Under the pieces are notes generated by a model that saw only the letters and a program-made list of their open reading frames with translations, had not been told where the DNA came from and did not search any database. This document shows, piece after piece, positions 32,411 through 43,988 of a stretch of DNA of 64,000 bases. A program made the position numbers and the translations under genes. Position 1 is the first letter of the stretch; each line of letters starts with the position of its first letter. This DNA is from a virus: positions 43,198 through 107,197 of the IMG/VR virus record IMGVR_UViG_3300041955_000884, one strand, 5' to 3'.

Positions 32411-33376
32411 TCACGGTGCTCCCGTAACACTAACCGCCTTCGTGCCGAGGAGGCGCCAAGCGCCCTGCCAGAAGGCGCAGAGCTCGAGCAGGTAGTCTCC
32501 CGCTGGCAGCGCGAACACAGCCTCGCCAGCCGTGCCGTACGCCGCGGCGTAGCTGATGCCGCTCACCGGCCTTCCGTTCCAGTAGCCCTTCCCGGCGGCG
32601 TCGAGCACGTTGACGCATGACCAGTCCCCGCCGGTGTCCGTCCAGACGAGCATCAACAGGCCGAGGATAGCGGAGCCGACGGTTATGGTTCCGGTCGGGT
32701 AGCCGAGCGCGGCCCCCACGATGGGATCCAGCGTGGCGAACATCGCCTGAGCCATCAGGTCGTAGCCGGATTGATTCGGATGGATGCCACTCCAGACGTT
32801 GAACATCTCAGAGTAGGACAGATCGGCGTGCCATGCGGCGCCCATCGCCTCCGTCTCGGCGTTGAAGTCAACGAGCGAAAGGCCAGCCGCCTGAGCGGCG
32901 CCGCGAACCATGGCCGCTTTGTCGTCGATGACGGCCGAGGCCCACGACGCATCGACCGCGTTCGGCGTCTCCAGCACGAGGCGCTTGCCAGCGGCCTGCG
33001 TGAGACGGACGATCTCGGCCAGCGGCGCCTGTACAGCCGCCGGCTCGTCGTTCATGCCGAGCGACAGCAGGACGACCGAGGCTGGAGTCGCGGCGACATA
33101 TGCCAGCCAGGAGTTCGCCACGCCGCCGGTGCCATCGAGCCAGTTCTGGAAAGTCGTTCCCGATACCCCGTTGTTGTTGACGACCACCAGCGGCCCGTAT
33201 TTCGCCTGGAGAAGCGCCCCAAGACCAGCCGGTGCTGGCGTCGCCACGACCGAGGAAACCGTGCCGTCGGCGCCGGGGGCCGGACCCGTGCTGGCGCCGT
33301 CGAACGTCAGCCCGAAAACCGTGCTGTCGCCATTGACGTCAACGACGAGGGGACTCGATGCGCTAGATTCGGTCAC
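32411..33376 (-). CDS. SGNH/GDSL hydrolase
   Basis: GDST, GVSG, GMND and GIHPNQSGY blocks. Confidence 0.8.
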   Translation of the reverse strand: MTESSASSPLVVDVNGDSTVFGLTFDGASTGPAPGADGTVSSVVATPAPAGLGALLQAKYGPLVVVNNNGVSGTTFQNWLDGTGGVANSWLAYVAATPASVVLLSLGMNDEPAAVQAPLAEIVRLTQAAGKRLVLETPNAVDASWASAVIDDKAAMVRGAAQAAGLSLVDFNAETEAMGAAWHADLSYSEMFNVWSGIHPNQSGYDLMAQAMFATLDPIVGAALGYPTGTITVGSAILGLLMLVWTDTGGDWSCVNVLDAAGKGYWNGRPVSGISYAAAYGTAGEAVFALPAGDYLLELCAFWQGAWRLLGTKAVSVTGAP

Positions 33377-33978
33377 GGAGCCAACTCCACGTTGTGATAC
33401 AGCCACGAAGCAAAATCCGCGCGTGTCTCGCTGTCAAGGAACTCCAGCCCGGCCCTGAGCAGCTCCGCCGTCGTCGGCTGCCGCGGCGGCTTCAGCGGCC
33501 GCAGGGGGGTGCCCTTCTTGCCGGAGTAGTTCGCTGGCCGGTCACGCTTCTCGACGTTGCACCTCACGCAGCAGCTCAGGATGTTGTCCCACACCGTCTG
33601 GCCGCCAGCCGCCCGCGGGATAACGTGGTCAAACGTCAGATCCTCGCTCTGGAACCGCTCGCCGCAGTACTGGCAGCGGTAGCGGTCCCGGAGGAGGATG
33701 GAGCGGCGACAGAACTTCGGCGCCGCATTGATTGGCGCGTACGACCGGAGCGCCACCACCTTCGGCACATGAATCGTGGTCGACGGCGAGCGGAACACCT
33801 CCGGCCACTCGTCCACGACGGTCACCGTCTCCTTGAAGACGGCGCGGATGGCTTCCTCGGGGCCGATAAGCGAGAGCGGCCAGGTACTTAACGGCCGAAA
33901 GTCGCTGTTCAGCACGAGACAGCGGCGCGCGTGGCGGTCGCGTCTATCAGGCTCAGCAGTGGCGACGGCGGTGCTCAT
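33373..33978 (-). CDS. HNH endonuclease (McrA-like) directly after the tRNA array
   Basis: LVLNSDFRPL, RDRYRCQYCG, LTFDHVIPRAAGG, CVRCNVEK. Confidence 0.9.
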   Translation of the reverse strand: MSTAVATAEPDRRDRHARRCLVLNSDFRPLSTWPLSLIGPEEAIRAVFKETVTVVDEWPEVFRSPSTTIHVPKVVALRSYAPINAAPKFCRRSILLRDRYRCQYCGERFQSEDLTFDHVIPRAAGGQTVWDNILSCCVRCNVEKRDRPANYSGKKGTPLRPLKPPRQPTTAELLRAGLEFLDSETRADFASWLYHNVELAP

Positions 33979-34018: not shown

Positions 34019-34093
34019 TGGTGCTCTCGGGCAAGAATCGAACTGCCGTTTACCGCTTACGAGGCGGTAGTCCTGCCACTGAACGACGAGAGC
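34019..34093 (-). tRNA. tRNA-Thr(CGT)
   Basis: Acceptor GCTCTCG/CGAGAGC, loop CTCGTAA, encoded CCA. Confidence 0.92.
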
Positions 34094-34096
34094 GTA

Positions 34097-34125
34097 TTGA
34101 GCCGGTTAACTGGCTGCGTTATACT
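34097..34125 (+). promoter_or_regulatory. Sigma70-like promoter for the antisense HNH gene (leaderless)
   Basis: TTGAGC-N17-TATACT, 6 nt before the ATG at 34132. Confidence 0.6.
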
Positions 34126-34131
34126 GCGCCT

Positions 34132-34575
34132 ATGCCCCACCGCACCAAAGAAGAAAATGTCGCTGGCGTCCTAGCATGGCGGCGCCGCGCGAAGCTGCGA
34201 CTTATCGAGGCGTTCGGTGGCGGCTGCGGCATATGCGGATATAACCGCTGCGCCGCTAACATGGCGTTCCATCATCTTGATCCGTCTCAGAAGGGCGTCG
34301 GATTTGGAAGCGCTCAGTCTCGCTCCTGGGCGAAAGTGATACACGAGGTCAGAAAGTGCGTGATGCTGTGCCACAACTGCCACGGCGAATATCATGCCGG
34401 CCTTATCACTGACCTTTCCGCTTGCCCGCGCTTCGATGAAACGTGCGCCACCTACAGCACCCGACCAACGAAAGGGAAGACGCGGAGAACTGGAGGATTG
34501 GGAGGGAATCGAACCCGTCCTATGACGCAGATTAAGAGCCTGCCGGCCTCACCAGAGTGCCAACCAATCCGCTAG
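34132..34575 (+). CDS. HNH endonuclease inserted antisense in the tRNA array
   Basis: GGGCGICGY...FHHLDP...CVMLCHNCHGEYH. Confidence 0.85.
   Translation: MPHRTKEENVAGVLAWRRRAKLRLIEAFGGGCGICGYNRCAANMAFHHLDPSQKGVGFGSAQSRSWAKVIHEVRKCVMLCHNCHGEYHAGLITDLSACPRFDETCATYSTRPTKGKTRRTGGLGGNRTRPMTQIKSLPASPECQPIR
34491..34570 (-). tRNA. tRNA-Lys(CTT)
   Basis: GGATTGG/CCAATCC, loop CTCTTAA, U73, CCA. Confidence 0.85.
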
Positions 34576-34652
34576 TGGTGCATGTCCCGAGATTCGAACT
34601 CGGCCTGTGCGGGATTTGAAGCCGCCGCCTCCTGCCTCTGGGCTAGACATGC
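34576..34652 (-). tRNA. tRNA-Leu(CAA), short variable loop
   Basis: GCATGTC/GACATGC, stem GCGGC/CCCGC, loop TTCAAAT, A73, CCA. Confidence 0.7.
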
Positions 34653-34656
34653 GAAC

Positions 34657-34728
34657 TGGCCTCGCCGCCCGGATTCGAACCGGGAAGCCCAACCTTCGGA
34701 GGGTCGGGTGCAGTCCATTGCCGGCGAG
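34657..34728 (-). tRNA. tRNA-Arg(CCG), atypical compact fold
   Basis: CTCGCCG/CGGCGAG, 7-bp anticodon stem, loop CTCCGAA, CCA. Confidence 0.8.
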
Positions 34729-34732
34729 AAAC

Positions 34733-34803
34733 TGGTGCCCCGTGCAGGGATTCAACCTGCCGTCTTTGGCTTAGAACGCCTAGGCCGTCGCAGCGGACGG
34801 GGC
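34733..34803 (-). tRNA. tRNA-Arg(TCT), atypical compact fold
   Basis: GCCCCGT/ACGGGGC, loop GTTCTAA, CCA. Confidence 0.75.
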
Positions 34804-34808
34804 GAGCA

Positions 34809-34881
34809 TGGACCTCCCGGGACGAATCGGACGCCCTCATCGAGTTTCGTAGACTCAAGTCCGCAATCCAGCGGCGGGAGG
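34809..34881 (-). tRNA. tRNA-Arg(ACG), atypical compact fold
   Basis: CCTCCCG/CGGGAGG, 6-bp anticodon stem, loop CTACGAA, CCA. Confidence 0.8.
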
Positions 34882-34885
34882 AATT

Positions 34886-34960
34886 TGGGGGCGCGTGCGG
34901 GGGTCGAACCCGCCTCTCTCGGGTGAAGGCCGAGGCATCTCGCCGGAAATGTAACGCGCC
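34886..34960 (-). tRNA. tRNA-Glu(TTC), C33
   Basis: GGCGCGT/ACGCGCC, loop CCTTCAC, CCA. Confidence 0.85.
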
Positions 34961-34965
34961 GAAGT

Positions 34966-35040
34966 TGGTGGAGCTGACCGAAGTCGAATCGGTGTTACGA
35001 GACTGCCAGCCTCGCGTCCTTGCCACTGAACGACAGCCCC
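34966..35040 (-). tRNA. tRNA-Ala(GGC)
   Basis: G3:U70 present, loop CTGGCAG, CCA. Confidence 0.92.
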
Positions 35041-35115
35041 GAAGCTGTGGTCGGCGTTTGATGCCTATATCCGCCGACACGCCCCATACATGGCAAGGGC
35101 GGCGCCTCGTCAAAC

Positions 35116-35190
35116 TGGTGAAGGGCGTTGGAATCGAACCAACCGTCTCCGCCATGTCAAGGCGGTGCTCATCCGATAAGCTGGCCCTCC
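35116..35190 (-). tRNA. tRNA-Val(GAC)
   Basis: GGAGGGC/GCCCTTC, loop TTGACAT, CCA. Confidence 0.92.
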
Positions 35191-35262
35191 GTACCTCGCC
35201 GTCGAATCGAACGACGGTATCCGCGGTGTGAACGCGGCGCCCTGCCATTGAGCGAGCGAGGC
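35191..35262 (-). tRNA. tRNA-Val(CAC), CCA not fully encoded
   Basis: GCCTCGC/GCGAGGT, loop TTCACAC; ends A-C and abuts the next tRNA. Confidence 0.88.
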
Positions 35263-35266
35263 AAAG

Positions 35267-35341
35267 TGGTCGGGGATGCAGGAATTGAACCTGCGTCGCC
35301 GCCTTCCAAGGGCGGAACCTGGGCCACTAGGCTAATCCCCG
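35267..35341 (-). tRNA. tRNA-Pro(TGG)
   Basis: C1:G72, A73, loop CTTGGAA, CCA. Confidence 0.9.
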
Positions 35342-35345
35342 TAGA

Positions 35346-35416
35346 TGGCGCCCCCGGCTGAAATCGAATCAGCATTCCTTGGCTTAGGAAGCCAGGGCCG
35401 CTCCATCGGCGGGGGC
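35346..35416 (-). tRNA. tRNA-Arg(CCT), atypical compact fold
   Basis: GCCCCCG/CGGGGGC, loop TTCCTAA, CCA. Confidence 0.8.
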
Positions 35417-35420
35417 AATC

Positions 35421-35498
35421 TGGTCAGCGTGCGGTGATTCGAACACCGGCTCTCGTGCGCCCGAGGCACGCGCTTTGGCCTGGCTAAGCTACACGCTG
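35421..35498 (-). tRNA. tRNA-Pro(CGG)
   Basis: CAGCGTG/CACGCTG, loop CTCGGGC, CCA. Confidence 0.92.
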
Positions 35499-35505
35499 TC
35501 GAAGC

Positions 35506-35581
35506 TGGCGCCCCAGACGGGTTCCGACCCCGCCAACATCGGCTTGACAAGCCGAGACCCCCGCCAGGGAGAATCTGGGGC
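35506..35581 (-). tRNA. tRNA-Asp(GTC)
   Basis: GCCCCAG/CTGGGGC, G73, loop TTGTCAA, T-loop GTCGGAA. Confidence 0.8.
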
Positions 35582-35585
35582 AATC

Positions 35586-35667
35586 TGGAGGACGGCGGAG
35601 GTGACGATCCCCTTGCGGCCGGATTAAAGGTCCGGTCCAGCGCCTCGCTGGTATACGCTCGCCGTCC
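35586..35667 (-). tRNA. tRNA-Lys(TTT), divergent (C33, enlarged D region)
   Basis: GGACGGC/GCCGTCC, stem CCGGA/TCCGG, loop CCTTTAA, T-loop ATCGTCA, CCA. Confidence 0.7.
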
Positions 35668-35672
35668 GAAAG

Positions 35673-35747
35673 TGGTTGCCGCACGCGGTACTGCCCCGCG
35701 AGCCTCTCGCTTATCGGGCGAGCGCACGACTTTCATGCTCTACGGCA
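35673..35747 (-). tRNA. tRNA-Ile(GAT), C33
   Basis: TGCCGTA/TGCGGCA, loop CCGATAA, T-loop GGCAGTA, CCA. Confidence 0.82.
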
Positions 35748-35748
35748 A

Positions 35749-35833
35749 TGGTGAGTTGGTGTGGTGCTGCCCCACGCGCCCGAAGGCGAAGGATTTACAG
35801 TCCTCCTGCCGGAGCTGCCGGCTTTACCAACCC
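35749..35833 (-). tRNA. tRNA-Tyr(GTA)
   Basis: Loop CTGTAAA, variable arm GCC-TTCG-GGC, T-loop GGCAGCA, CCA. Confidence 0.85.
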
Positions 35834-35839
35834 GTGAAC

Positions 35840-35910
35840 TGGAGCCGCGTCTCGGTGTTGCGCCGAGCCTCCGTCCATACCAAGGACGGGTGCAGACTGC
35901 TGCGCGCGGC
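35840..35910 (-). tRNA. tRNA-Thr(GGT), compact fold
   Basis: 6-bp stem CCGTCC/GGACGG, loop TTGGTAT, D arm GCAG-CAGT-CTGC, CCA. Confidence 0.78.
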
Positions 35911-35913
35911 AGA

Positions 35914-36001
35914 TGGTGGAAGGCCCCGAGCACGATTCGGACACCTTTCGGTGCGCACGGTTTAGCAGACCGGCCCCGCAACCTTACGGGCTGTGCCTTC
36001 C
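35914..36001 (-). tRNA. tRNA-Ser(GCT)
   Basis: GGAAGGC/GCCTTCC, loop CTGCTAA, long variable arm, CCA. Confidence 0.85.
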
Positions 36002-36007
36002 AGAAAG

Positions 36008-36097
36008 TGGCGGACGGCGGCTAGTGCTGCCCTGCAAACCCGTTGGGGTCTCATCGGTTTTCGAGGCCGAGCCGCAGACTGCTGCGGGTCACCGTCC
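36008..36097 (-). tRNA. tRNA-Ser(CGA), 8/4 fold
   Basis: 8-bp acceptor GGACGGTG/CGCCGTCC, loop CTCGAAA, long variable arm, G73, CCA. Confidence 0.82.
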
Positions 36098-36209
36098 ATG
36101 TGCGCTCCAGCGCACTGTATCGCGGCTAATGTGCTCTTGAGAGCCGATTTTGCGGGCGCCGCATTCGCTGCGGTCGTTCAAGACTGGAGGCGGAGGCCAG
36201 CCCCCATAG

Positions 36210-36297
36210 TGGCGGAGAGCGGGCGCGCACGATGCCCATGCCTTGCGGCACCAGCCGGGTTCAAACCGGCGGTCGGAACCTTCCGACTTCACTCTCC
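36210..36297 (-). tRNA. tRNA-Ser(TGA), 8/4 fold
   Basis: 8-bp acceptor GGAGAGTG/CGCTCTCC, loop TTTGAAC, long variable arm, G73, CCA. Confidence 0.85.
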
Positions 36298-36301
36298 GTA
36301 A

Positions 36302-36389
36302 TGGCGGGCGGCGGGCGCAGTCGAAGCCCTGGCCTTTCGGCCTCATCGCGCTTCCAACGCGAGCCGGCGACCCCGCCGGTTCACCGCCC
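36302..36389 (-). tRNA. tRNA-Ser(GGA), 8/4 fold
   Basis: 8-bp acceptor GGGCGGTG/CGCCGCCC, loop TTGGAAG, long variable arm, G73, CCA. Confidence 0.85.
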
Positions 36390-36393
36390 AAAC

Positions 36394-36478
36394 TGGTAGC
36401 CCACGAAGGAGTTGCACCCTCACGCCGCGATGGCACGAGTTCCTAAGACTCGCGTGTCTGCTGTTCCACCAGTGGGCC
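36394..36478 (-). tRNA. tRNA-Leu(TAG)
   Basis: Loop CTTAGGA, long variable arm, A73, CCA. Confidence 0.9.
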
Positions 36479-36483
36479 TAACT

Positions 36484-36567
36484 TGGTACGCCCGGGGAGA
36501 GTTGCACTCCCACGTCATGCGACACAACGCCCTCAACGTTGCGCGTCTGCTGTTCCGCCACGGGCGC
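36484..36567 (-). tRNA. tRNA-Leu(GAG)
   Basis: Loop TTGAGGG, long variable arm, A73, CCA. Confidence 0.9.
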
Positions 36568-36568
36568 T

Positions 36569-37078
36569 CTATTTCGGTGCTGGCCAAATGTCGGCCAGGG
36601 TCGGACGACGCTCGCCGAGGACGAGCGACAGCCTGGATTTCGAGTGCGCTGGCGCTAGGCGGTCGAGCCGTTGCGCAGGCTGGGGCACATTGGCCAACGT
36701 CGCCTCCGAGATCGGCTCGGCATATTGGCCAATCTTGTGCAGGCCCCAGGACGCCGCGACGTGGAATTCGGGCTTGCGGGAGCCAGACGGACCCGGCTTC
36801 GCCACTGCTCTGACGCACGCCACCGCGCCCCAGCAGTGGCCGCAGGCGGCGCGGAGGTTGTTGCAGTGCCCGCAGACGAGGTGGTGCATTCTCGTGCCCG
36901 TGGGATACTCGTAGCGCCTCGTGCGCGGCAGGATGTGGTCCCGCGTGGCGCTCCGCTTGGCGTGGCCCTCGGGCAGCATCGGGTCGCCGCACTGGGGGCA
37001 GCAGACGGTCTCGCCCATCGCCTTCGCGAGGTCGAACAGGAGCAGCTTCCTCTTCGTGAAGCCCTGCGGCGCGCTCAT
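36569..37078 (-). CDS. HNH-like endonuclease within the tRNA array
   Basis: CPQCG...ATRDHILPR...VCGHCNNLR; leaderless promoter TTGCCT-N16-TAGGCT upstream. Confidence 0.75.
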   Translation of the reverse strand: MSAPQGFTKRKLLLFDLAKAMGETVCCPQCGDPMLPEGHAKRSATRDHILPRTRRYEYPTGTRMHHLVCGHCNNLRAACGHCWGAVACVRAVAKPGPSGSRKPEFHVAASWGLHKIGQYAEPISEATLANVPQPAQRLDRLAPAHSKSRLSLVLGERRPTLADIWPAPK

Positions 37079-37116
37079 GGCGGAAGCCTACCACGCTCGG
37101 CGCCGGAGGCAAGATG

Positions 37117-37200
37117 TGGTGCCGGCGGCAGGCATCGAACCTGCACGCTGCGCGCGGCCCGGTTTAAGCGGGCTGGGTCTACCGATTCCCCCACGCCGGC
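37117..37200 (-). tRNA. tRNA-Leu(TAA)
   Basis: GCCGGCG/CGCCGGC, loop CTTAAAC, long variable arm, CCA. Confidence 0.9.
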
Positions 37201-37203
37201 GAT

Positions 37204-37278
37204 TGGTGGCGCTAGGGGGATTTGAACCCGCCCTTTCCCGGTTGAGAGCCGAGCGGCCTGCCAATAGCCGATAGCGCC
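37204..37278 (-). tRNA. tRNA-Glu(CTC)
   Basis: GGCGCTA/TAGCGCC, loop CTCTCAA, CCA. Confidence 0.9.
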
Positions 37279-37282
37279 GAAA

Positions 37283-37357
37283 TGGAAGCGGGTGCCCGAC
37301 TCGAACGAGCGTGAAGGAGGTCAAAGCTCCCCGTCCTGGCCGCTGAACGAACCCGCC
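37283..37357 (-). tRNA. tRNA-Gln(TTG)
   Basis: G1:U72 weak first pair, loop CTTTGAC, CCA. Confidence 0.88.
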
Positions 37358-37362
37358 GCGAT

Positions 37363-37467
37363 TGGTAGGCGATGACGGTGCCGACCCGTCTCGAACGCCG
37401 CCAGTGCGTAAGGGACCGTCGCCCCCTGGGCCGTCGCCCGCGTTCTGCCCAGCCGGGGCAATCGCCT
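37363..37467 (-). ncRNA. tRNA-like RNA with the anticodon loop replaced by a 41-nt branched domain
   Basis: Acceptor AGGCGAT/ATCGCCT-A-CCA, D arm and T arm intact, stem GAACGC/GCGTTC closing three hairpins. Confidence 0.75.
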
Positions 37468-37505
37468 GCCGAGTTTCTAGCACGTCACATCCGATACCGC
37501 AATAG

Positions 37506-37579
37506 TGGAAGCCGACCAAGGTGTCGAGCCTTGCCCGACGAGCTTCAGAGGCTCGCGTGCCCAGCCGGGGCGATCGGCC
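37506..37579 (-). tRNA. tRNA-Gln(CTG), compact fold
   Basis: GGCCGAT/GTCGGCT, 1-nt linker, loop CTCTGAA, CCA. Confidence 0.8.
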
Positions 37580-37582
37580 GAA

Positions 37583-37661
37583 TGGTGCTCCTGGCCGCGA
37601 TTCGAACGGGCGACCCCCGGGATACAAAGCCGGTGCTCTGGCCAGACTGAGCTACAGGAGC
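37583..37661 (-). tRNA. tRNA-Thr(TGT)
   Basis: GCTCCTG/CAGGAGC, canonical D arm, loop TTTGTAT, CCA. Confidence 0.9.
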
Positions 37662-37662
37662 T

Positions 37663-37739
37663 TGGGGTGACATGCCGGTACCGCCCCGGCCCAAACTGGG
37701 CTCACAACCCAGCGCAATCGCTTGCCTGCCCATGTCACC
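37663..37739 (-). tRNA. tRNA-His(GTG) with G-1:C73
   Basis: G-GTGACAT/ATGTCAC-C-CCA, loop TTGTGAG. Confidence 0.88.
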
Positions 37740-37751
37740 ATACGCAATCCA

Positions 37752-38130
37752 TCCCGTCGCATCTATGCTCGCCTCGGTGTTACCCGTGGCTAGCCGTATC
37801 GCACGGCGAACGGGAGCCGGGGCTACCGTCTGTTTCAACGGTGTCGCCGGAGAGGTTTCGAGCCGGCATCGCTATGCTACGGCGGCATCGAAGACGGCTT
37901 GCCGCCGGCGGAGGGGTTAATCCCGCGCATCACCACCCTGGGTCGGGCTCCGCAATCCCCTGATGACTTAGCCGCTTCGCCGCCGGTTCCATGCCCAGCG
38001 CCGCTCGAAAGCTCCCTGCGGGCTAGCCTCGGCGCGCATCCGAAGCCAAGCTGGGCCAGCCTTAGAACCACCGCAGCGCTGGCCCGTCGCCCGCGTGGAA
38101 GGCTTCGCGTCTGTCCGCGATGCCGCAGGA
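37752..38130 (-). ncRNA. Candidate ~380-nt structured RNA between tRNA-Cys and tRNA-His
   Basis: Ends pair (TCCTG-CG-GCATC / GATGC-GA-CGGGA); many hairpins; no credible ORF. Confidence 0.55.
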
Positions 38131-38133
38131 AGG

Positions 38134-38209
38134 TGGAGAAGCGCCACAGAGTCGAACTGCGTGATGCGGGGTTGCAATCCGCCACCCAAGGCCGTCGGGT
38201 TCGCGCTTC
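38134..38209 (-). tRNA. tRNA-Cys(GCA)
   Basis: U73, loop TTGCAAC, CCA. Confidence 0.88.
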
Positions 38210-38214
38210 AATCT

Positions 38215-38288
38215 TGGCAGGGGCGTGAGGAATTGGACCCCATCTAGCTGGGTTGGAGCCAGCCGTGCTGCCGTAACACTTCGCCCCC
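38215..38288 (-). tRNA. tRNA-Trp(CCA)
   Basis: G73, loop CTCCAAC, CCA. Confidence 0.88.
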
Positions 38289-38292
38289 AAGT

Positions 38293-38367
38293 TGGCTCCA
38301 GAGGCAGGACTTGAACCTGCAACCTCACGGTTAACGGCCGTTTGCTCAGCCATTGAGCTACTCTGGA
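38293..38367 (-). tRNA. tRNA-Asn(GTT), C33
   Basis: TCCAGAG/CTCTGGA, G73, loop CCGTTAA, CCA. Confidence 0.92.
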
Positions 38368-38486
38368 AAACTCGTCTGGCGCTCGGCCCTCTCGGGCCAG
38401 ACTTTCCGGGCTACCCACCAGCGCGTTGCCATGGCTCGCTGGCCTCTATCCGTTATGGACTCGGGGTGACCGAGTCACGCCATGCT

Positions 38487-38562
38487 TGGAGCGGGATGCC
38501 GGGGACGATCCGAGCTTCACTGGTTTGGAAGACCAGCACAGTTACCGAACTGCAAATCCCGC
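38487..38562 (-). tRNA. tRNA-Gly(TCC)
   Basis: GCGGGAT/ATCCCGC, U73, loop CTTCCAA, CCA. Confidence 0.87.
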
Positions 38563-39137
38563 GAAATGGTGCCAGCGCCTGGTTTCGCGCCAGGGTCTTC
38601 GCTTTTTCGGAGCGACGCTTCCACTAGGTTAGCTTCGCTGGCCATTGGCAGGGAAGTCCACGCCTTGCCGAGCTTGATGCGGCTTATCATGTCCTCCGTC
38701 ACGCGAAAACTTGTTGCTATCGAACGGCCAGTTCGGCCAGATGCCAGGAAGCGGCGAATCTCATGCACATCACGCTCCGACAGCTTAGCGTTTCCATTTG
38801 ACGCCCCCACGGAGGGCGGCAGGTTGCCCTTCGGGCGACGCCCCTTCCTGGCACTGTCCCGCATATTTTCGGCGTTCGTTCCGAGCCACAGGTGACGCGG
38901 ATTGCAGCAGGGCGGGTTGTCGCAAGAATGGCAGACGCAAAGGCCGCAGGTCGGTCCCTTCGCTATCTCGTAAGCGACGGCATGTGCCCGCCGAGAGCGG
39001 AGCGTTGGCCTGCTTTGCTTGAACCGACCGTACCCGTCATCGTCAATCTGGCGAGTCCACGGCCAGCACTCGTCAGGCCCGCGGATGTCAACCTTTGACC
39101 AAAAGCGCGCAATCGCCTTATCGTCGTGAATAGCCAT
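38517..39137 (-). CDS. HNH homing endonuclease with C-terminal HTH; the frame runs through tRNA-Phe
   Basis: RFWSKVD...ECWPW...CHSCDNPPCCNPRHLWLGTNAENMRD; SD GAGGAG. Confidence 0.88.
   Translation of the reverse strand: MAIHDDKAIARFWSKVDIRGPDECWPWTRQIDDDGYGRFKQSRPTLRSRRAHAVAYEIAKGPTCGLCVCHSCDNPPCCNPRHLWLGTNAENMRDSARKGRRPKGNLPPSVGASNGNAKLSERDVHEIRRFLASGRTGRSIATSFRVTEDMISRIKLGKAWTSLPMASEANLVEASLRKSEDPGAKPGAGTISRDLQFGNCAGLPNQ
38567..38642 (-). tRNA. tRNA-Phe(GAA), C33
   Basis: GCCAGCG/CGCTGGC, loop CCGAAAA, T-loop CGCGAAA, CCA. Confidence 0.87.
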
Positions 39138-39235
39138 ATCGGCCGTCTCCTCGGCTGGCGTGGTCAGGACCGCCGGGGCGTTCACAGCGCTCCGGCGGCC
39201 CGAGATTTCTAGTCGAAATGTCCAGCCGAAGCAAT

Positions 39236-39307
39236 TGGTTGCAGGGGAGCGAGTCGCACGCTCTGTGGAAAATTTATGAGACTTTCTGGCCTCTGAGGCT
39301 CCCTGCA
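39236..39307 (-). tRNA. tRNA-Met(CAT), compact fold
   Basis: TGCAGGG/CCCTGCA, 1-nt linker, 6-bp anticodon stem, loop CTCATAA, CCA. Confidence 0.75.
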
Positions 39308-39312
39308 ATAAC

Positions 39313-39386
39313 TGGTGGGCGCGCGACGAATCGGACGCCGGTCAAGCCTTTATGAGAGGCTCGCTCTTCCATTGAGCTACACGCCC
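39313..39386 (-). tRNA. tRNA with CAT anticodon (probably Ile2/lysidine; Met not excluded)
   Basis: GGGCGTG/CGCGCCC, loop CTCATAA, no initiator features, CCA. Confidence 0.82.
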
Positions 39387-39399
39387 GTCGCGTGGAATT

Positions 39400-39474
39400 T
39401 GGAGCTGACGCCCGGTACCGCCCCGGGTGATACTGATTGGCAACCAGTCCCGCAACCTTTCGCGGACCGCCAGC
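39400..39474 (-). tRNA. tRNA-Gly(GCC)
   Basis: U73, loop TTGCCAA, T-loop GGCGGTA, CCA. Confidence 0.83.
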
Positions 39475-39485
39475 TAAGACATGAA

Positions 39486-39531
39486 CGAATCTCGCCCGAC
39501 CTGGCGACGACACGGCCAGGTCGGGCATTCG
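39486..39531. other. Strong hairpin spacer between tRNA-Ala and tRNA-Gly
   Basis: Perfect 12-bp stem GCCCGACCTGGC/GCCAGGTCGGGC plus CGAAT/ATTCG. Confidence 0.6.
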
Positions 39532-39536
39532 TGAAA

Positions 39537-39611
39537 TGGTGGAGGCGCGGATAGTCGAAATCCGAGACAGCAATCTTGCAAGGATAGCCCGCTGGTCCGC
39601 AGCTCGCCCCC
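39537..39611 (-). tRNA. tRNA-Ala(TGC), compact fold; first tRNA of the array
   Basis: G3:U70, 1-nt linker, loop CTTGCAA, CCA. Confidence 0.83.
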
Positions 39612-41553: not shown

Positions 41554-42207
41554 TCAGTCGGCCGCGAGCTTCAGCGGGAGCTGGGCGGCGGCTTCGGCAA
41601 CCTTCCTTGCGGCCGTCTTCGCGCGCCTGCCGGCGAGCAGCGCCGCGTGCTGGCGCGCGCGCTTCTCCGGCGGGGACGCGGCCCACCTCGCCGTCTGCGC
41701 GGCGCTGCGTTTGGCCCTGAGCGCCGGGTCGGCGGAGGCGGCTCGCATATTGGCCCGCACCTGGTCGCTTACGGGACCCCGTTTTCCGCGCTTCCCGCGC
41801 ATTGCGGCCCTGTGTTTCTCGGTCTTCGGCTTGCCGGTGAGGGCAGCGCGAATCCTCTCCTTTCCGGCCTCCGGCATCTTAAAATCCAGAAGGCTTCCGG
41901 CCTTCGGCGCAAGATTGTAGCCGCGGTCGCGGTCGGCGGCACCGAGACGGTCAATCCATATCTGCTCGCGTTCCCTGAGCGTCGCCTTATCCTCGACGAC
42001 CTCTAGGATTTCCCAGATGAATGCCTCGGGGCCGTACATGTTCCAGGCGCTCTGGAGATGTACGTTGTGGTGTCGGCCGGCCTCGAGGTCCTTTCGGTGC
42101 TTCGACCTACGCACCGAATAGTTCACTCCGGAGCCGACGTAGAGCCGCCCCGTGACGACGTTCCTGATGACATAGACGGCGGGGACGCATACTCTCTGCT
42201 TAGCCAC
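41554..42207 (-). CDS. GIY-YIG homing endonuclease
   Basis: AVYVIRN...LYVGS...R...HLQSAWNMYG...EILE...REQIWI...GYNL; GTG start after GAGGAG. Confidence 0.88.
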   Translation of the reverse strand: MAKQRVCVPAVYVIRNVVTGRLYVGSGVNYSVRRSKHRKDLEAGRHHNVHLQSAWNMYGPEAFIWEILEVVEDKATLREREQIWIDRLGAADRDRGYNLAPKAGSLLDFKMPEAGKERIRAALTGKPKTEKHRAAMRGKRGKRGPVSDQVRANMRAASADPALRAKRSAAQTARWAASPPEKRARQHAALLAGRRAKTAARKVAEAAAQLPLKLAAD

Positions 42208-42281
42208 GGCAATTTCTCCTCGGTTGCCGGAGGTCAGGAGCGCGACGCCGCTGGAACGGCGTCGCGTTCCGCTTTTGTACC

Positions 42282-43988
42282 CTAGCTCGGCGGCGCTGGC
42301 AATCCAGAAGATGGCGCGAAAGGCGTCGCTGGCATTTCGACATTTGCCGCCGTCGGCCGATCGCAGGTTACCTCCATGACGCCAAGATGAGTCGTGGCAT
42401 ACGTAACGTCGAGGTCGCACCATGCAGTGAACCCCGCCTCCCTGGCCTTGACAATCATGAACAGGTCTTCGGAAAAGTAGCGCTCAGGGCTGCCGGAGTC
42501 GACCGCGACCTCGTAATTATCCATCAACCAAGCACCGAACGGCGTGGCGTCAATCGAGGCGAGCACGTCATCTGGTGGGACCTTCGTGAAATACTCCCGC
42601 ATCTGGTTTTTGAACGCGTCGAGGTTGTCTTTCCCAGCCCAGCGGTAGCATTCCGCGTACCATGGCCATCCGAGCCGACGATATATATCGGCCCTGACGA
42701 GCAGTACGCCTCCCGGCAAAAGCTCGGCTTCAACGAGGCCACCCTTCGCCAACTCCTCCGGCGGCGGCGGAGGTCCCTTGAGCCGGCCGAGCGTGGAGTA
42801 CGGCTTCGTTCTCCGATTGTACGTGGCGCCGACAATATCTTTGTTGTGCCGCAGAAACTTGACAATAGTGTCTGGCGGCACGACCATGTCGCTGTCCAAC
42901 CAGAAAACATAGTCGCAGTTCTGCTCAAGGGCTATCTGCACGATACTGTTCCTACCGTGCGTGACAGACGAAGTCTGAACGTTGAGTAGCGTGCAATCCA
43001 GGCCTGCAAGTGATGTATAGCTGGCCAGCGCCGCGATGCAGTTGGCGGTGGTCGCCTCGTACGTTCTACCACTTGGGGTTGCAATGGCAACCCGCAACTT
43101 CCTCGGCTGCTGTTTGGCGAGGTCGGCCATCATCTTCACGGCGTGGGCCTTGACCTCAGCATACGCGGCGTAGGGCGGCTCGGCGCCAGCGGGGGCGGCC
43201 CAGCGCTCCAGGAAGGCGGGGTGCTTGAGGTGCGCGATGCGGGCTGCGGCGATTTGCTGGCGGCGCGGCAGATCGGCCAGGGCGCGCTTGCCTTCATCGC
43301 CCTCCTTCCCCCAGGCAGCCTCGATGAGTTGGATGCCCTCCTTCAGCCGGACGGGATTGAGGGCGTGGAAGAAGTCGCACCAGAAGGGAAGCTCGTAGCG
43401 ACCGCCGGTGGTGTCGCCCTGGCCATCGGGGGCGCCGAGCTTCACGTCAATCTCGAAGCGGACGCCGAGGAGAACGCCGAGCTGGTCCCAATGGGTGTCG
43501 ATGAACCAATAGGGGTAGCAGGGCGGCATCACGAAGCCGACGGCGCGCTCCATCTGGCGGGTGATGATGGGGAAGGCGGCGTGGTCGGGATGGAAGTCGT
43601 CCTTGGGGTAAGCGACGCCGATGCCGTTCGGGAGCTTCGCGACGGCCTCGCGGAACTTCGCCGGCCAGCCATCGGTCTCCATGACGCGGTCGTTGGCGCA
43701 GAACCAGAGGATGTCGCCCTTGGCCTCGAGGGCGAGCTGGTTGATCTTCTGCCCGAGCGTGAGCGGGCGTGGCCAGCGGAACACGTGGACATTGTGGCGG
43801 AAGGGCGGCTCGTCGGCCGAATGCGTCTCATCGTCCTCGTCTATGGCGATGCACGCTTCCCACCGCTGGTCATCGCCTGCGGTGTCAACGAGTGAGTAGA
43901 TAAGGCGCCGCAGCCCGTCCGGTCGCCCTCTCTCGGGGATGAGGACGGAAATCATCGGCTTCTCGCGGCGCAGTCTGGCCTCGCCCAT
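42282..43988 (-). CDS. Two-domain glycosyltransferase (GT2-like)
   Basis: ISVLIPERGRP...NDR...WFIDTH; second domain IATP...RNSIV...FWLDSDM...SEDLF. Confidence 0.8.
   Translation of the reverse strand: MGEARLRREKPMISVLIPERGRPDGLRRLIYSLVDTAGDDQRWEACIAIDEDDETHSADEPPFRHNVHVFRWPRPLTLGQKINQLALEAKGDILWFCANDRVMETDGWPAKFREAVAKLPNGIGVAYPKDDFHPDHAAFPIITRQMERAVGFVMPPCYPYWFIDTHWDQLGVLLGVRFEIDVKLGAPDGQGDTTGGRYELPFWCDFFHALNPVRLKEGIQLIEAAWGKEGDEGKRALADLPRRQQIAAARIAHLKHPAFLERWAAPAGAEPPYAAYAEVKAHAVKMMADLAKQQPRKLRVAIATPSGRTYEATTANCIAALASYTSLAGLDCTLLNVQTSSVTHGRNSIVQIALEQNCDYVFWLDSDMVVPPDTIVKFLRHNKDIVGATYNRRTKPYSTLGRLKGPPPPPEELAKGGLVEAELLPGGVLLVRADIYRRLGWPWYAECYRWAGKDNLDAFKNQMREYFTKVPPDDVLASIDATPFGAWLMDNYEVAVDSGSPERYFSEDLFMIVKAREAGFTAWCDLDVTYATTHLGVMEVTCDRPTAANVEMPATPFAPSSGLPAPPS

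Follow-up and report, generated by a model that had tools for sequence, protein, structure and literature searches.

A tRNA-shaped RNA with three hairpins in place of its anticodon loop in a phage tRNA array, and its relation to tRNA-Val(UAC)

Phage tRNA arrays are now viewed as tools for escaping tRNA-directed host defences, which makes it of interest when one member of an array is shaped like a tRNA and has no anticodon loop. A 105 nt element of this kind lies within the tRNA array of a phage known from an IMG/VR virus record (107 kb, 94% complete), on the minus strand of the 64,000 nt stretch of that record analysed here, which we call the window. Among the genes of the phage are those for a large terminase, tail proteins, a major head protein and a portal that PHROG labels 'head-tail adaptor'; its exonuclease is closest (~40%) to those of Sinorhizobium and Rhizobium phages. 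The array is nearly complete, and its sole missing U34 tRNA is replaced by this perfectly folded, host-like body without a usable anticodon. We ask what the element descends from, and whether it is a dead gene, a tRNA that still works, or a non-decoding RNA kept for what its body can bind.

Fold and parts of the element

The sequence and every pairing given for this locus in the original prediction (acceptor, T arm, closing stem and three hairpins) proved exact, and the minimum free energy fold computed with ViennaRNA is the same structure (-55.8 kcal/mol; z = -2.6 against dinucleotide shuffles). All 36 of 36 base pairs are intact, those of the new hairpins included, and the seven helices have pair probabilities of 0.95-1.0 except at three end pairs (1:101, 0.89; 7:95, 0.83; 41:58, 0.73). 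Where the anticodon loop belongs, a 6 bp stem closes three perfect hairpins (H1-H3) in a four-way junction, and the 41 nt insert that makes them up has no reading frame (Table 1).

Table 1. Parts of the element and its immediate neighbours, in window coordinates
Feature	Coordinates	Strand	Basis or remark
Whole tRNA-shaped element, 105 nt	37363-37467	-	fold; self-hit of covariance model R1, 130.7 bits
Acceptor 5' strand (nt 1-7)	37461-37467	-	7/7 Watson-Crick with 37367-37373
U8, directly after acceptor 5' strand	37460	-	
Compact D arm: 4 bp, 5 nt loop with GG	37447-37459	-	predicted fold
A26 equivalent, single A after D arm	37446	-	
6 bp closing stem, 5' strand, at anticodon-stem position	37440-37445	-	pairs with 37393-37398, probability >0.99
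Hairpin H1: 4 bp, GACG tetraloop	37428-37439	-	predicted fold; direct repeat of H2 top
Hairpin H2: 7 bp including 2 G-U, GACG tetraloop	37410-37427	-	predicted fold
Anticodon-loop relic CUUACGC (nt 56-62)	37406-37412	-	spans H2 base, unpaired A at 37409 and H3 start
Hairpin H3: 3 bp, ACUG tetraloop	37399-37408	-	predicted fold
6 bp closing stem, 3' strand	37393-37398	-	predicted fold
2 nt linker after closing stem (variable region)	37391-37392	-	
T arm: 5 bp, 7 nt loop with G54, U55, C56, G58	37374-37390	-	stem 9/10 as in bacterial tRNA-Val(UAC)
Acceptor 3' strand, discriminator A73, encoded CCA	37363-37373	-	part of 3' 16-mer with T-stem 3' strand
tRNA-Gln(TTG), next downstream	37283-37357	-	starts 5 nt after CCA of element, normal spacing
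Spacer between tRNA-Gln(CTG) and element, 38 nt	37468-37505	-	weakly structured, -3.2 kcal/mol
tRNA-Gln(CTG), adjacent, shares D-arm block	37506-37579	-	R1 match 35.8 bits, E = 2e-4

Much of a canonical tRNA is present: a 7 bp acceptor stem, a discriminator, CCA, a T arm of 5 bp and 7 nt, and a D arm with GG. The cloverleaf with a 5 bp anticodon stem and 7 nt loop is absent, and positions 54 and 58 of the T loop depart from the canonical sequence. ARAGORN makes no call of the element with or without introns or in tmRNA mode (-i, -io, -m), and Rfam 15 gives no match even at E up to 10, be it to YrlA, to viral tRNA-like structures or to any other family. The bacterial Y RNA YrlA and the valylatable tymovirus 3' element resemble our element as cases of tRNA mimicry without decoding, although YrlA is permuted relative to it, with its ends in the Ro-binding stem. 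The element is also like tmRNA in principle, having an acceptor/T-arm domain and an inserted structured domain instead of the anticodon arm, but a tmRNA is rejected: it is 105 nt long, carries G3-C70 rather than the alanine identity pair G3-U70, has no tag reading frame or pseudoknots, and is negative with ARAGORN -m. A protein-coding reading was likewise rejected, the overlapping ORFs running through neighbouring tRNA genes as well.

The bare frame of the element (a 7 bp acceptor, a T hairpin and a D hairpin within 92-140 nt) is common in this GC-rich genome, with 16 matches as compared with 6-10 after shuffling. Of these 16, the element alone lies in the array on the array strand and has an A-CCA end 5 nt before the next tRNA.

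Valine ancestry and place in the array

Judged by sequence comparison, the frame of the element is a derivative of an alphaproteobacterial tRNA-Val(UAC), since its 3' 16-mer, stem identities, isotype ranking and anticodon heptamer all agree on this source. The 16-mer (T-stem 3' strand, acceptor 3' strand, A73 and CCA, queried with one position free) is present in 16 of 61 sampled Alphaproteobacteria and its reversed control in 0; the 11 matches that ARAGORN called are all tRNA-Val(UAC). Relative to the consensus of bacterial tRNA-Val(UAC), the element has 6 of 7 acceptor pairs, U8 and 9 of 10 T-stem positions in common, with A73, CCA and the heptamer also in order; the one differing acceptor pair is 1:72, where the element has A-U, and U72 was seen in one bacterial tRNA-Val(UAC) gene. 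Over acceptor and T stems together it agrees with a Rhizobium tRNA-Val(UAC) at 21 of 24 positions, as compared with a median of 12/24 when the other array tRNAs are set against their own bacterial counterparts. In both bacterial tRNA sets no isotype matches it better than Val(UAC), and tRNA-Val(UAC) is the best match to its frame among the 46 tRNAs of a Sphingopyxis genome, these comparison genomes being samples and not the host's own. Acceptor and T stems with A73 are thus of the isotype-specific kind found in alphaproteobacterial tRNA-Val(UAC), and a match that so far exceeds chance expectation places the element itself well beyond chance.

The element differs from alphaproteobacterial tRNA-Val(UAC) in having no anticodon stem-loop, the 6 bp stem closing three hairpins instead; in its compact D arm, which lacks nucleotide 9, A14 and A21; in its 2 nt variable region; in the A-U pair at 1:72; and in G54 and G58 of the T loop. 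A shifted alignment, in which the T loop would come from the variable loop and T stem of tRNA-Val (13/14 match), appears less parsimonious than direct homology with the changes U54G and A58G, both of which also occur in a tRNA-Asp. That tRNA-Asp is the only one in the array and its T stem is otherwise of bacterial type, and the compact D arm is likewise present in tRNA-Gln(CTG), presumably a working neighbour. The T-loop changes of the element are accordingly best taken as belonging to a 'dialect' of the array, not to decay.

The likeness to tRNA-Val(UAC) extends into the rebuilt region. The heptamer CUUACGC, of the form Y-U-UAC-R-Y, resembles UUUACAC at positions 32-38 of bacterial tRNA-Val(UAC), and a heptamer of that form appears in the middle region in 0.6% of shuffles (P = 0.006). 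Compared with tRNA-Val, ~28 extra nt lie 5' of it and ~5 nt 3' of it. In the predicted fold U57 and U58 are taken up in the basal pairs of H2 and C60-C62 in those of H3, with A59 left at the junction, and among alternative pairings in the pair-probability analysis we found no stem that closes the heptamer as a 7 nt loop around UAC. Lying across the junction, the heptamer cannot form an anticodon loop. The major identity elements for ValRS in E. coli are A35 and C36; the element does not present them in an anticodon loop, U58 and C60 being paired and A59 at the junction. It had been remarked that the insert contains GAC, GAC, TAC and CAC, all valine anticodon triplets. Their number does exceed expectation (4 seen against 1.7 expected, P = 0.04), but the excess is nearly trivial because any AC dinucleotide makes such a triplet, and TAC is the one that carries meaning. 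The broader proposals that the element is 'Val-like' and linked to a missing Val(TAC) are borne out by acceptor, T stem, A73, CCA and heptamer.

The co-oriented array occupies 34019-39611 and comprises 39 tRNAs: 25 called by ARAGORN and 14 added from a scan for an acceptor stem with N-CCA and from Rfam at relaxed thresholds, all with plausible cloverleaves and anticodons. Val(TAC), which the original prediction had reported absent, is absent from all 39 mapped tRNAs. A U34 tRNA serves every one of the four-codon boxes of Thr, Ala, Pro, Gly, Ser and Leu, and Arg has ACG, whereas Val has GAC and CAC only, making it the sole four-codon box without a U34 or inosine-type (ACG) tRNA. Among the Val codons of 13 confident genes GUA accounts for 5.6%, and it is no rarer than ACA (4.8%), UCA (6.2%) and CUA (2.6%), for which there is a U34 tRNA. 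It is the array's Val(UAC) slot that the element occupies.

One part of the element has another affinity. Its nt 4-22 are identical to the adjacent tRNA-Gln(CTG) at 18 of 19 positions, within which the D-arm identity noticed earlier holds at 14/14, and tRNA-Gln(CTG) alone gives a significant match to covariance model R1, all other array tRNAs scoring <17 bits. Throughout the stems common to the two, every difference keeps pairing, with 5 double changes, in what is a model-fitted alignment of two sequences. The common block seems better explained by gene conversion between neighbours or by a chimeric origin than by descent of the whole element from tRNA-Gln(CTG).

Relic, mimic or working tRNA

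We favour, with a probability of about one half, the reading that the element began as the tRNA-Val(UAC) gene of the array, had its anticodon arm rebuilt, and is now a relic that no longer serves translation. The gene would have gained ~28 nt 5' and ~5 nt 3' of its anticodon loop, partly by tandem duplication of a small hairpin, and the old anticodon heptamer would have been left lying across the four-way junction. A 12 nt motif found nowhere else in the genome stands here twice as a direct repeat, in H1 and at the top of H2, a slippage signature that points to such a duplication, as far as sequence can tell. A dispersed repeat or mobile palindromic insert was considered and rejected: in this genome the motif is confined to the element, and 98 metagenome matches cover the 27 nt repeat alone and not its context in the element.

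The RNA is probably transcribed with the rest of the array. No sigma-70-like promoter site was found on the array strand inside the array or beside the element, and no terminator-like site on that strand in or beside the element, the sole one lying ~1.8 kb upstream at 39293-39278. The spacer upstream of the element is atypical, as other spacers within runs of adjacent array tRNAs measure 0-7 nt; a candidate for the element's own promoter, found there by hand, was discarded when it failed the criteria of the promoter scan. The substrate features recognised by RNase P and by 3' trimming enzymes are the elbow and the acceptor/T minihelix. The element has kept both, with GG in its D loop and UC in its T loop to make the elbow contacts, as well as an encoded CCA, and we infer that these enzymes would probably trim it to a stable, tRNA-shaped RNA of 105 nt ending in CCA. 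With no 7 nt anticodon loop to present, this RNA is predicted to decode neither GUA nor GUG, nor any other codon, and the phage would rely on the host's tRNA-Val(UAC) for GUA.

The slippage signature, the atypical spacer and the lack of a homologue in any collection searched (see below) all favour a relic, and dead members of tRNA arrays have precedent: in the Anabaena trn operon, 3 of 26 genes have no detectable tRNA (PMC8421152). Our element resembles the pseudo-tRNAs of that array as a member of a long co-transcribed array unable to decode. Typical pseudo-tRNAs have broken stems or are truncated, whereas here every helix is perfect and structure has been gained. Simple decay would not predict 36 intact pairs, new hairpins included; nor does it sit easily with acceptor and T stems closer to their bacterial counterpart than those of almost any other array member, or with stem differences from tRNA-Gln(CTG) that all preserve pairing. 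Host-like stems combined with an array-specific D arm and T loop could instead mean that the body has long been under purifying selection.

Stable RNA species I and II of phage T4, known from older literature, are co-processed and of unknown function. The element is like them in being a non-tRNA stable RNA within a phage tRNA gene region, its stability being predicted; unlike the element, they are to our knowledge not known to derive from a specific tRNA. A passage of PMC2330249 places the two species in the T4 tRNA region.

The same evidence of an intact body feeds the strongest alternative, which we consider less probable than a relic: that the element is a selected, non-decoding tRNA-Val mimic. 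Its role would be that of a decoy, a sponge or a sensor, directed against a host factor with tRNA-Val or ValRS as its target. Selection would have kept the acceptor/T body of host type, together with A73 and CCA, for binding by a host or phage factor that reads tRNA-Val (ValRS, a tRNA-directed defence nuclease or toxin, or a modification or CCA-directed enzyme), and the bulk of the three-hairpin junction would exclude the RNA from the ribosome. Perfectly paired helices in a very well-defined fold, an identity to bacterial tRNA-Val(UAC) that is unusually high for this array, and pairing-preserving differences from its block partner would all suit such a role, as would D-arm and T-loop changes of an array type common to working members, which could mean that the element co-evolved with the array. 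The many non-canonical loops in the array fit pressure from tRNA-targeting factors, and a passage of PMC10264068 proposes that phage tRNAs escape anticodon nucleases. Against selection stand the lack of a homologue, and with it of conservation or covariation evidence; the contigs with 89-90% portal identity, which have no array in the stretches examined; the lack of an identified partner protein; and the tandem-repeat origin of H1 and H2, which is equally compatible with neutral slippage. A more specific version, in which the processed mimic of host tRNA-Val(UAC) would be recognised, even valylated, through its body and the UAC displayed at the junction, strikes us as hardly less probable than the mimic reading in general; partial recognition by ValRS can be imagined given that UAC sits at the end of a 6 bp stem, approximately in the place of an anticodon.

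If selected, the element would be a new class of phage tRNA-derived counter-defence RNA, the first phage tRNA-body decoy of such design, and also a natural case of a four-way junction built on a tRNA scaffold. Should it prove a relic, it would show how hairpin duplication can disable a tRNA gene while a processable RNA remains.

A third reading, that the element arose by tandem duplication of tRNA-Gln(CTG) and then lost the anticodon loop, is improbable. The two genes adjoin, nt 4-22 and the sole significant R1 match among array tRNAs link them, and CUG is present in the loop of H3. Outside nt 4-22, though, the frame is that of bacterial tRNA-Val(UAC) (the 21/24 positions and best isotype given above), and bacterial tRNA-Gln is not close to the element; a pure Gln(CTG) duplicate was our initial reading and was dropped after the comparison with bacterial tRNAs.

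Least probable, and very much so, is a working tRNA-Val(UAC) precursor whose inserts are removed as unusual introns or opened on demand in a caged tRNA. In its favour, the array has no other candidate for the Val(UAC) slot, and the sequence of the anticodon heptamer has survived intact. Against it, ARAGORN's intron mode is negative, the fold shows no bulge-helix-bulge, and a group I intron would not fit into so small an insert (so that the 'unusual intron' of the original prediction finds no support); no stem can close the heptamer; extra nucleotides on both sides of the anticodon mean that a single excision could not restore the cloverleaf and two separate ones would be needed; and RtcB, splicing endonuclease, Rnl2-type ligase and CCA-adding enzyme are all missing from the gene complement of the phage.

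Relatives and other features of the array

Homologues of the element were sought in several ways. Exact and degenerate DNA patterns found none in viral, metagenome and genome contigs; megablast and blastn found none among INPHARED phages; and a loop-and-geometry descriptor with free stems also found none. A covariance search for homologues in phage arrays, proposed with the original prediction, returned none when run with R1 over all array-bearing loci. In five bacterial genomes R1 found no homologue either; its best match there (34 bits) breaks many of the pairs, lies in sequence that looks coding, and is a false positive. When 401 Alphaproteobacteria were searched for expanded Val-type genes, the only matches were by eye coding-like or chance-like.

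Relatives of the phage itself were found through its exonuclease, HNH endonuclease and portal, and have no array in the stretches examined; none came from a query with the DUF4326 protein, whose gene lies upstream of the array. In ENA and JGI there are near-identical contigs that carry the neighbouring HNH gene at 99% identity. Loci L045 and L050, which belong to one viral contig, and loci L049-L054 have 89-90% portal identity to the phage, and the L045/L050 contig spans the syntenic region with an HNH homologue and has a single tRNA-Met in place of the 39-gene array. The array may therefore be a recent gain in this phage lineage.

Three homing-endonuclease genes are scattered through the array or sit directly at its downstream end; ~2 kb upstream there is a fourth (GIY-YIG). 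One of these is a 169 aa ORF at 36569-37078 (minus) with a conserved HNH-like motif and homologues at 35-65% identity, some of which adjoin a single tRNA-Met in related array-less phage contigs (L044, L045); on this sequence evidence it is probably a homing endonuclease. The other endonuclease genes are at 33373-33978, 38517-39308 and 41554-42423.

Gene-finder counts for arrays of this kind are incomplete, ARAGORN having missed 14 of the 39 tRNAs. Those missed, all within 34733-39474 on the minus strand, are Arg TCT, Arg ACG, Asp GTC, Lys TTT, Ile GAT, Tyr GTA, Thr GGT, Ser GCT, CGA, TGA and GGA, Cys GCA, Phe GAA and Gly GCC. Many of them have non-canonical T loops, and with them the 39-tRNA array covers all 20 amino acids.

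Several further stretches of the array, all on the minus strand, are unusual in structure. The gap between tRNA-His and tRNA-Cys (37739-38133, 395 nt) has no credible ORF and no Rfam match, is predicted to be strongly structured (-186 kcal/mol), and contains at 38079-38096 a 17/18 match to nt 25-42 of the element (E = 0.03). The spacer between tRNA-Gly(TCC) and tRNA-Asn (38368-38486, 119 nt, -47.7 kcal/mol) gives no tRNA call and ends in CGCCA 9 nt before tRNA-Asn. The sole tRNA-Lys(UUU) (35586-35667, 82 nt) is structurally expanded: a 6 bp hairpin replaces the normal D arm, and an extra 3 bp stem encloses this hairpin together with the anticodon arm, whose loop is kept. At 35191-35262, tRNA-Val(CAC) is apparently the only array member without an encoded CCA, and abuts tRNA-Val(GAC) with no spacer.

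A T arm with G55 is common to tRNA-His (37663-37738) and tRNA-Gly(GCC) (39400-39474). Exact 15 nt matches to it occur in at least 119 viral contigs, 8 of which carry 3-23 tRNAs in the stretches examined (23 in L182); in L218 the match sits in the T arm of an apparent tRNA-Cys. Going by these matches, the G55 T loop may have spread across several phage tRNA arrays.
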